Shown in pieces: positions 27,781 through 53,833 of a stretch of 64,000 nt of DNA. Position numbers and translations under genes: made by a program. The DNA comes from Isurus oxyrinchus (taxonomy: Eukaryota), in the NCBI GenBank assembly GCA_026770705.1, contig JANJGN010000037.1, positions 496,001 to 560,000 on the forward strand, in the 5' to 3' direction. A model generated the notes under the pieces. The model was not told where the DNA came from. It searched no databases and was given only the letters and a program-made list of their open reading frames with translations. Each line of letters starts with the position of its first letter. The stretch's first letter is position 1.

Positions 27781-28271
27781 CACAGCAAAGGAAAGACGAC
27801 AGAAGACATTTCACTCCAAGGAGAGGCTGAAGTAGATTGTTAGTTGAAGAAATGTCACAGGCAATGAGAGATAAACACCCACAGTTGAAAGAGACCGACT
27901 TTTTATCACGGCAGGGAGAGAGATTGTAGCATGAATTTCGACTCCCAGTGCTTATGGTCAGCGCCCCAGTACAAGCTGAATGGTTTGCACACTGCCCGCT
28001 AGACTAAAAAACGAAGCTAGAATTTTATTTAATCATCGTAAAATTTTCAATCAGATCGGCCCTGAAACATAGATATTCACGATAGTACAGGAAACGTCAT
28101 AACTTGTGTCTGATATCACAGCCTTAAATTCAGATAATCATGGAATGATTAGCGACATTATCCCGACACCACCTCCTCTGGAAACCTGGTCTCGGAACGA
28201 TTGCACCCATGATATCAGACATTTCTTCTGAGAAAAGCACCCCGTTCACGAAGAACCCGTTAATAAAGTGA

Positions 28272-28353
28272 CGACGAAGGCGGAATTCGAACCCTCGCGT
28301 GCAAAGCACAATGGATAAGTAGTCCATCGCCTTAACCTCTCGGCCACCTCATT
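28272..28353 (-). pseudogene. tRNA-Ser (GCT body) with anticodon ACT, probable pseudogene
   Basis: AATGAGGTGGCCGAGAGGTTAAGGCGATGGACTACTTATCCATTGTGCTTTGCACGCGAGGGTTCGAATTCCGCCTTCGTCG. A and B boxes intact; A1-C72 and T-stem mismatches; T at position 37. Confidence 0.8.
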
Positions 28354-28875
28354 GTGAGCTCTTTCCTATTAAACCTCCTCCTATACTGTTTTGCATCCAT
28401 GAACTGTTGAACTAAATGAACCTGCTTGTTTCAGGTCCTGAATAACCATCCAGGTATCTCATGTAGTTTGTCAATAAAATACATTTCCAATCACATCAGG
28501 TCGAAAGTGTAAATCGACTGATGTGAATCACTTCAACACTTCAACATGATATCCAACATGTTTCTAGACTGAGTGAAAACCCACCGCGGAAAGACCGAAA
28601 CATACATTCATCTGGAAGAATAAAGAAACCCCTTCCGGCTCAGTGAAAGTACCGGAACACAGCTGACATGTGGTCTTTCATTCAAGACTGTAACTGACAG
28701 CAATCAACATCCGACTGAACACACAAGGAGAAAGTTGCCGTATTCGATGCATTAGGAGAAACTTTGCGTTGGTTTTCTGTGTTGTGATTTATTCTCTGCA
28801 ATGATTTCCCGGATGTTCAAAGCTGGTCCTGATTTCCCAAACTGGCACCGCCTCGAGCACACGAATTAATGTATT

Positions 28876-28887: not shown

Positions 28888-28978
28888 GGGCTCGTCCGGG
28901 AATTGAACCCGGGACCTCTCGCATATTAATTTATTACAAACACCCAAAGCGAGAATCATACCCCTAGACCAACGAGCC
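28888..28978 (-). tRNA. tRNA-Pro(TGG) with 19-nt intron (28924-28942)
   Basis: Exon 1 GGCTCGTTGGTCTAGGGGTATGATTCTCGCTTTGGG (36 nt), intron TGTTTGTAATAAATTAATA, exon 2 TGCGAGAGGTCCCGGGTTCAATTCCCGGACGAGCCC (36 nt). The spliced 72-nt product matches the vertebrate Pro consensus except for one T-loop base. Confidence 0.93.
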
Positions 28979-35777: not shown

Positions 35778-35860
35778 TGTCAGGAGTGGGATTCGAACCC
35801 ACGCCTCCAGAGGAGACTGCGACCTGAACGCAGCGCCTTAGACCGCTCGGCCATCCTGAC
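35778..35860 (-). tRNA. tRNA-Leu(CAG), intact
   Basis: GTCAGGATGGCCGAGCGGTCTAAGGCGCTGCGTTCAGGTCGCAGTCTCCTCTGGAGGCGTGGGTTCGAATCCCACTCCTGACA matches the vertebrate Leu-CAG consensus. Confidence 0.97.
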
Positions 35861-50213: not shown

Positions 50214-50300
50214 GAGCTCGCCTGAGATTTGAAAGAGACCGCTCACATTCTCACTTATGAAACGTCCCATAGCGAGAATCACACGGTGAGACCAATAATT
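50214..50300 (-). pseudogene. Decayed intron-containing tRNA-Pro(TGG) (intron ~50248-50265)
   Basis: TTGGTCTCACCGTGTGATTCTCGCTATGGG[ACGTTTCATAAGTGAGAA]TGTGAGCGGTCTCTTTCAAATCTCAGGCGAGCTC; shares its 3' flank with 50685. Confidence 0.75.
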
Positions 50301-50684
50301 TAACTGAATGTATATAACTCAGCCAATATAGACATTCATTTGCACCCAAAAGATATCAGCCATTCTTTCAGAGCGCTCTAGGTAAAAGAGAACATTGAAG
50401 AAATACACCAGGCAGTGTGTAGGCCAGGCAGTATCCATGGAGACGGCAAGAAATCTCAAGTTTCAGTTACACTCATTCTCTTCTTGGGATAAATTAACTC
50501 ATTCTCTTATGAGGATAAATTAACCGTCCGATTACATGAGCAACAGTTTCTTCATTTACTCAACGTGTTTTGCAGGAATAATTTCGTTATCAGGACTTCT
50601 CAGGTTCTAAAAACTCGCCCGGGTGTAAGTTAAACCCGCCTTTTCCCTCTTAAAAAAACATGCATCACAAGTGATAACACACGA

Positions 50685-50774
50685 GAGCTCGTCCAGGATT
50701 TGAACCCGGGACCTATCGCACGATCATTTTACGAAAACCCCGAAGCGAGAATCATACCTCTAGACCAACGAGCC
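50685..50774 (-). tRNA. tRNA-Pro(CGG) with 18-nt intron (50721-50738), possibly impaired
   Basis: Exon 1 GGCTCGTTGGTCTAGAGGTATGATTCTCGCTTCGGG, intron GTTTTCGTAAAATGATCG, exon 2 TGCGATAGGTCCCGGGTTCAAATCCTGGACGAGCTC. C27-T43 mismatch and two G-U pairs; T7 at 50652-50658. Confidence 0.82.
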
Positions 50775-53742: not shown

Positions 53743-53833
53743 CGACTCTGGTGGGACTCGAACCCACAACCTTTGAATTCCTTTTCCAACAGCAGCTAGA
53801 AGTCCAACACGCTATCCGTTGCGCCACAGAGCC
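53743..53833 (-). tRNA. tRNA-Arg(TCT) with 18-nt intron (53779-53796), intact
   Basis: GGCTCTGTGGCGCAACGGATAGCGTGTTGGACTTCTA[GCTGCTGTTGGAAAAGGA]ATTCAAAGGTTGTGGGTTCGAGTCCCACCAGAGTCG, the standard vertebrate intron-containing isotype. Confidence 0.95.

Follow-up and report, generated by a model that had tools for sequence, protein, structure and literature searches.

Most tRNA-Pro genes in this shark genome are interrupted between positions 37 and 38 by a short insert. We consider it probable that these inserts are true tRNA introns which were gained in this fish lineage, are transcribed by Pol III, are removed by predicted TSEN endonuclease cleavage and RTCB ligase joining, and were amplified in tRNA arrays. 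"Gain" is judged here against the intron families listed for mammals and against general background on other animals. According to this explanation, one or a few intron-bearing genes would have been duplicated into large segmentally repeated arrays, in which the anticodon would have switched at position 34, and seven or eight intronless genes would have kept up the housekeeping supply of tRNA-Pro. Taken together, the sequence features make it likely that tRNA-Pro and tRNA-Arg(TCG) possess a functional canonical intron family, splicing being inferred. Two tRNA-Pro copies at positions 50214..50774 of the window (the whole analysed stretch of 64,000 nucleotides) had been flagged by a sequence-only reading; they are of minor weight, one being dead and the other marginal.

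The number of intron-bearing genes was determined with an exact tRNA-Pro pattern, which required the insert site 37/38 and allowed lengths of 8–35 nt, over the 4.98-Gb assembly. This census revealed 83 intron-bearing matches, namely 78 loci and five retrocopies, with 50 distinct introns and all three Pro anticodons (39 TGG, 26 AGG and 18 CGG). The number is a lower bound; the CGG copy of the window itself fails the exact pattern. Since the reversed control pattern gave no match in the same genome, the family is not a product of chance, and the proposal of a family rather than a one-off insertion holds genome-wide. The insert lay between N37 and N38 in all 83 matches, a site fixed by the search pattern itself. 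Its length was 17–20 nt in 82 of them and 12–20 nt overall, which lies within the range of short tRNA introns (approximately 12–60 nt). Intronless tRNA-Pro genes numbered seven by the exact pattern and eight when up to three mismatches were allowed. The seven exact genes have perfect exons and close T-runs and cover AGG, CGG and TGG. Thus, splicing is not required for the formation of mature tRNA-Pro.

The best members of the individual lineages were compared, using 43 exon positions outside the search pattern. Exons were 91–100% identical between lineages, introns 25–68%, and flanks were unalignable or only weakly alignable. Exon divergence therefore does not equal intron divergence, the outcome that would have spoken for a set of pseudogenes, and the age that had been proposed for the family is borne out.

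Four array contigs hold 75 of the 83 matches; the others are three dispersed genes (L004, L005 and L008) and the five retrocopies. Based on their flanks, the 78 loci form four subfamilies (28, 20, 15 and 10 members), two stragglers that align to two of these subfamilies, and three singletons. Three of the four subfamilies contain mixed anticodons on shared flanks, which indicates switching at position 34 after duplication. In BLAST searches that scored 40 candidates, the flagged pair and the tRNA-Pro locus at 28888 gave 41 and 42 matches, or approximately 40 units apiece; locus and unit counts may be raised by haplotype duplicates. A copy on contig C50 is 100% identical to that of the window over 801 nt and is either a recent duplicate or a haplotig. 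In C50:530001-1230000 a 28888-type locus and a CGG locus return together, 21.9 kb from each other, roughly every 700 kb; the array is thus built of very large segmental repeats. The dispersed L004, L005 and L008 are whole tRNA genes with near-perfect exons and unalignable flanks. L004 and L005 are located on contig C13. L008 (C21:97929262-97929353), a Pro-CGG gene with a 20-nt intron, has a perfect 4-bp anticodon-intron helix and no T4 within 80 nt downstream.

Like the vertebrate introns spliced by TSEN and RTCB, the Pro inserts as a family are short, lie at 37/38, vary in sequence among members and can pair through their third-last base with position 32 (available text of PMC10275265 and PMC10539383). 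For human and mouse only the families Tyr-GTA, Ile-TAT, Leu-CAA and Arg-TCT are named in the available text of PMC10275265 and PMC11472047. In contrast, the shark isotypes are Pro-AGG, Pro-CGG, Pro-TGG and Arg-TCG, none of them GTA, TAT, CAA or TCT. Further differences are that intron-bearing and intronless genes coexist for each isotype, that most copies reside in multi-megabase arrays and that U·U occupies the anticodon-intron position in one subfamily. The presumed mechanism is the known one; what is new is the range of isotypes for a vertebrate. Among the openly available papers, abstracts and excerpts, none was found that deals with intron families of tRNA-Pro or tRNA-Arg(TCG) in vertebrates. 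Presumably, the automatic annotation of GtRNAdb or RefSeq already lists these intron-bearing genes. The available text of a shark preprint (bioRxiv 10.1101/2025.06.08.657570) describes clustered tRNA arrays and numerous tRNA loci with introns, and reports that sharks have many copies of tRNA-Sec versus one in non-sharks. The present genome shares all three features, with more than 20 strong tRNA-Sec copies, most of them in tandem arrays with a period of about 2.8 kb (C6:165.70-165.73 Mb and C4202). Unlike the present analysis, that text leaves the isotypes unnamed and tests neither pairing nor selection nor transcription; a breakdown may be given in Figure 3A or the supplements of the preprint.

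It is conceivable, if rather unlikely, that the introns are functional but ancestral, i.e. that intron-bearing Pro and Arg-TCG genes existed already in early vertebrates, were kept and amplified here and were lost in mammals. The three dispersed genes are indeed old, as their flanks are unalignable and their introns no more alike than background in spite of near-perfect exons. Gain and loss of introns are both documented in yeasts (PMC4090602), and same-site Pro introns are common in non-animal eukaryotes: according to the available text of PMC13079951, all ten Pro-UGG genes of S. cerevisiae carry introns, of 30–33 nt, and metagenomes yielded at least 125 intron-bearing tRNA-Pro genes with a non-animal type of acceptor stem (L250-L370; 119 of 121 loci parsed, 52 of 64 parts scanned). 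The metagenome genes are probably fungal; at least 113 of the at least 125 listed have the anticodon AGG, and many of their introns contain a CCCT motif. Fungal Pro introns have isotype and site in common with those of the shark and differ in acceptor stems and intron sequences, and this comparison gave no evidence of shared ancestry. Against an ancestral origin stand the absence of Pro and Arg-TCG from the human and mouse families named above and, as a weak negative, the absence of this genome's GGCTCGT acceptor end from the at least 125 metagenome hits listed. To our knowledge, the Pro genes of flies and bony fish are intronless as well.

Signs that favour transcription of the intron family came from the five retrocopies (L001, L002, L003, L006 and L007), which are located on large chromosomes. 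Each has kept the intron, carries three T at the position of the parent's T-run and is joined to a tRNA-like repeat of about 140 nt. They start at or near the tRNA 5' end with 0–7 leader bases identical to the parent, except for the 5'-truncated L002. L007 is flanked by a 6-nt direct repeat, and L003 consists of a U6 copy (identified by Rfam), a pre-tRNA-Pro and the repeat. We read the five retrocopies as retroposed unspliced precursors, which would point to germline transcription of intron-bearing Pro genes. The available text of PMC6789731 describes chimeric retrocopies of U6 and LINE-1, insertions in which a Pol III RNA stands fused to the 5' side of a retroelement RNA. L003 shows the same arrangement of a Pol III RNA 5' of a repeat; the shark chimeras differ in their 3' partner, the repeat of about 140 nt, and in the captured RNA, an unspliced pre-tRNA. 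This repeat may also be used for a census of germline Pol III transcripts.

Two further chimeras are 5' fragments fused to the repeat, which end inside the intron approximately 2 nt (L373, AGG) and 5 nt (L374, CGG) before the 3' splice site and could be cleavage intermediates or random breaks. None of the repeat-fused 5' fragments ends at T4 or G37, and among the retrocopies there is none whose end falls precisely on a splice site. A search by exact pattern for chimeras with a Pro 3' end recovered only L007 again. No intronless copy with array-specific bases, as expected for a spliced product, was present among the eight intronless genes found. Four of the seven chimeras derive from the subfamily with U·U at the anticodon-intron position; the chance of this is about 0.07 by hand calculation if the subfamily gave a quarter of the precursors, and this is only a hint that its precursors linger.

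The flagged CGG copy belongs to this U·U subfamily. ARAGORN with introns allowed identified tRNA-Pro(CGG) at c[50685-50774], i.e. 50685..50774 on the minus strand, whereas the Rfam search of the window placed it below the gathering threshold. The gene comprises a 5' exon (50739..50774, minus strand; positions 1–37, with G16A), an 18-nt intron after G37 (50721..50738, minus strand) and a 3' exon (50685..50720, minus strand; positions 38–73, with G43T, C63T and C72T). The reported 18-nt insert at 37/38 is confirmed, as is that of the neighbouring copy (50248–50265). The exons had been called near consensus, and this is generous: only four of 72 positions differ from an intronless CGG gene, yet one of the changes, G43T, disrupts the 27-43 pair. 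Compared with the intact body expected for TSEN recognition, the mature part contains C27·U43 and two G·U pairs. The third-last intron base (position −3) is U, which mismatches U32, so that the pairing base reported missing is indeed absent; this is a trait of the whole subfamily. The intron bases −4 (A), −5 (G) and −6 (U) are able to pair with U33, C34 and G35.

An intronic T4 is present at 50734..50737 (minus strand), and the predicted TTTT/AAAA hairpin was seen in the modelled fold of the anticodon arm of L061, a paralogue with the same intron. The T4 had been proposed as a premature Pol III stop. As an absolute stop it is ruled out, since two retrocopied precursors of the CGG subfamily (L002 and L007) bear the T4 and extend past it. 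Their 3' end corresponds to the downstream T-run, which in the window's copy is a T7 located 26 nt 3' of the gene (50652..50658, minus strand) and likely the Pol III terminator. The proposed attenuation remains plausible from the loss of the U32 partner across the subfamily. Because its subfamily lost the U32 pair and its own anticodon-stem pair is broken, the window's CGG copy is likely a fading one.

The second flagged copy, at 50214..50301 (minus strand), is a dead tRNA-Pro pseudogene with an 18-nt intron remnant (50248..50265, minus strand). The decay that had been described was evident: 12 of 36 positions of the 5' exon are changed, U33 is lost, and the T arm has a 2-nt deletion; the copy lacks an intact mature body of the kind recognized by TSEN. 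Neither ARAGORN at its default threshold nor Rfam called the copy, though it is readable at c[50214-50301]. Its alignment with the CGG locus extends over 276 nt (59% identity, E 1e-11), of which about 190 nt lie upstream, and the best match of its 3' flank is the CGG subfamily. It is an old tandem duplicate of the CGG locus and thus not independent evidence, and the view of the pair as two independent anticodon families is rejected. Its TGG anticodon may have arisen by CpG decay of CGG. As the copy is equally decayed in 30 of 30 aligned paralogues, it died before the array expanded.

The GTTT..TAA..TGA likeness between the two flagged inserts is real, and its source is direct duplication. The echo claimed for the intron at 28924 fell away: subfamily representatives are 47% identical, inside the 25–68% range of unrelated introns. 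A common ancestry of all introns based on the GTTT..TAA motif is rejected, this likeness not exceeding background.

The tRNA-Pro(TGG) gene at c[28888-28978] (28888..28978, minus strand), called by ARAGORN with introns allowed, belongs to another array subfamily and is the best candidate for a functional Pro copy in the window. It has a single exon difference (A59T), a U32:A pair and a T4 9 nt downstream; the mature tRNA body is intact here and in many paralogues. Its 19-nt intron (28924..28942, minus strand) has A at −3 in 30 of 30 aligned paralogues. ARAGORN also found an Arg-TCT gene at 53743-53833, whose 18-nt intron belongs to an ordinary mammalian-type family. Further tRNA genes of the array are located at 771-854, 2068-2143, 28270-28354 and 35778-35860; they are, in this order, an intronless Leu-CAA resembling the Leu-CAG copy, Thr-AGT, a Ser with the atypical anticodon ACT, of which a 700-kb array stretch contains four more, and Leu-CAG.

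A described hallmark of tRNA introns is that their third-last base pairs with position 32 (available text of PMC10275265 and PMC10539383). In 70 of the 83 Pro matches the base at −3 could form this pair with U32, being A in 65 and G in five; in the other 13 it is T. The pair is possible in six of seven lineages. The frequency of A at other intron positions is 24%; as evidence, the A at −3 is weakened by shared ancestry and a mutation bias toward A/T. The base at −4 is a purine in 83 of 83. The dispersed L005 (AGG) and L008 (CGG) form four pairs with the anticodon loop, the base at −5 matching position 34.

Arg-TCG provides a complementary case, in which the −3 base follows position 32. A 17-nt intron at 37/38 was found in 34 of 35 exact tRNA-Arg(TCG) matches (e.g. 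L239-L249; L238 is intronless); all 34 have G at −3, facing C32, and the next base is variable. A pattern for the remaining Arg-NCG anticodons retrieved a single gene, which belongs to the TCG intron family and has a shifted anticodon; ordinary ACG and CCG bodies may not match this pattern. In the 700-kb array stretch ARAGORN identified 41 tRNA genes. Introns were confined to those with Pro-type, Arg-TCT-type or Arg-TCG-type bodies and were absent from Cys, Gly, Leu, Met, Phe, Thr, Trp and true Ser genes.

In the CGG subfamily −3 is T in 28 of 30 aligned paralogues, and the pair with Y32 is lacking in the flagged copy and its subfamily. The adjacent pairs U33-A, C34-G and G35-U are kept in 27–30 of 30, with G at −5 in 30 of 30. 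Minimum-energy folding of whole genes yielded no cloverleaf, and the fold used is that of the arm. In it, the three bases at the 3' end of the intron can alternatively pair with the anticodon, an arrangement that would distort the 3' bulge. Splicing was blocked in reporters from fly and human when the anticodon-intron position was unpaired, with C-C and not U-U as the tested combination, and A-U pairs at this position reduced splicing in the fly reporter (PMC6614914). The U32:A pair of most Pro introns is accordingly a weak one. We think it rather probable that this putatively transcribed subfamily, having lost the U32 pair, would be spliced poorly.

Evolutionary rates were determined as non-CpG parsimony steps per column. 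For each locus, 30 paralogues were aligned, namely those that scored best when the entire 800–900 nt region was searched by BLAST, irrespective of tRNA quality; p-values take columns as independent and ignore gene conversion. The TGG subfamily showed 0.48 steps per column in exons, 1.35 in the intron, 1.21 in the 40 nt upstream and 0.50 in far flanks (exon versus intron p = 4e-4). The corresponding values of the CGG subfamily were 0.67 in exons, 1.58 in the intron, 1.42 in the inner 20 nt upstream, 1.17 in the trailer and 0.48 in far flanks (exon versus intron p = 0.004). Introns thus evolved 2.4–2.8 times faster than exons in both measured subfamilies, whereas the dead copy showed 0.31–0.42 throughout and 0.31 in its intron. 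Fast inner flanks and introns with slower exons are the pattern of active tRNA genes (available text of PMC6130373). Slower exons than introns could also arise without selection, via folding or factor binding.

Such data may be viewed differently: the copies may be transcribed passengers of segmental duplication which yield little or no mature tRNA and whose exons are alike owing to internal promoters or gene conversion. This we regard as improbable. It would agree with exons that were not slower than far flanks within subfamilies (p = 0.92 and 0.076) and with the decay of about half of the array paralogues, only 12 of the 30 best-scoring CGG and 16 of the 30 TGG paralogues having two or fewer exon differences. 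The persistence of a whole subfamily lacking the U32 pair, the dead copy carried in about 40 units and the retrocopying of only unspliced or intron-truncated forms fit as well. On the other hand, the exon identity of 91–100% includes the acceptor stem and non-promoter positions and extends across lineages with unalignable flanks. Subfamily-specific exon bases (A16 and T59) persist, contrary to conversion by intronless genes, and −3 follows position 32, with A or G opposite U32 in Pro and G opposite C32 in 34 of 34 Arg-TCG genes. Clustered changes in the anticodon arm, intron and T arm of L119, L120, L123 and L124, paralogues of 50685-50774 with close flanks, suggest gene conversion from another tRNA gene or mutation bursts.

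An assembly artefact or a tRNA-derived SINE, suggested by near-identical units in array contigs and by the tRNA-like short repeat fused to seven copies, is highly improbable and largely refuted by 50 distinct introns, by whole cloverleaves followed by T-run terminators, by flanks shared over hundreds of bases where a SINE would have its tail, and by contigs from two independent studies (organism B) that span the dead-copy insert at about 99% identity. B may be the source species, as may organism A, in which there was read depth at the dead copy and no bridging contig among those listed. The SINE candidate was rejected on the distribution of the matches: 75 of the 83 are array members whose flanks are shared, the dispersed L004, L005 and L008 are whole genes, and only five chimeras look retroposed.

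How eukaryotic tRNA genes gain introns is an open question (PMC4090602). Three questions become testable in this vertebrate, namely gain versus loss, the effect of an intron on an otherwise identical tRNA and the strictness of the anticodon-intron pair rule; its genome combines intron-bearing and intronless genes that share an anticodon, seven diverged intron lineages, subfamilies with switched anticodons and exon bases by which tRNA from the arrays can be told apart. A bolder reading, which we offer tentatively and hold to be rather doubtful, is that sharks doubled the vertebrate tRNA-intron repertoire through a gained and anticodon-switched Pro intron and through Arg-TCG, and that the arrays supply most of the germline tRNA-Pro. 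If this were true, germline tRNA-Pro would depend on TSEN, new circular intron RNAs would be released, and the U·U subfamily would represent a naturally occurring substrate whose splicing dispenses with the classic anticodon-intron pair.
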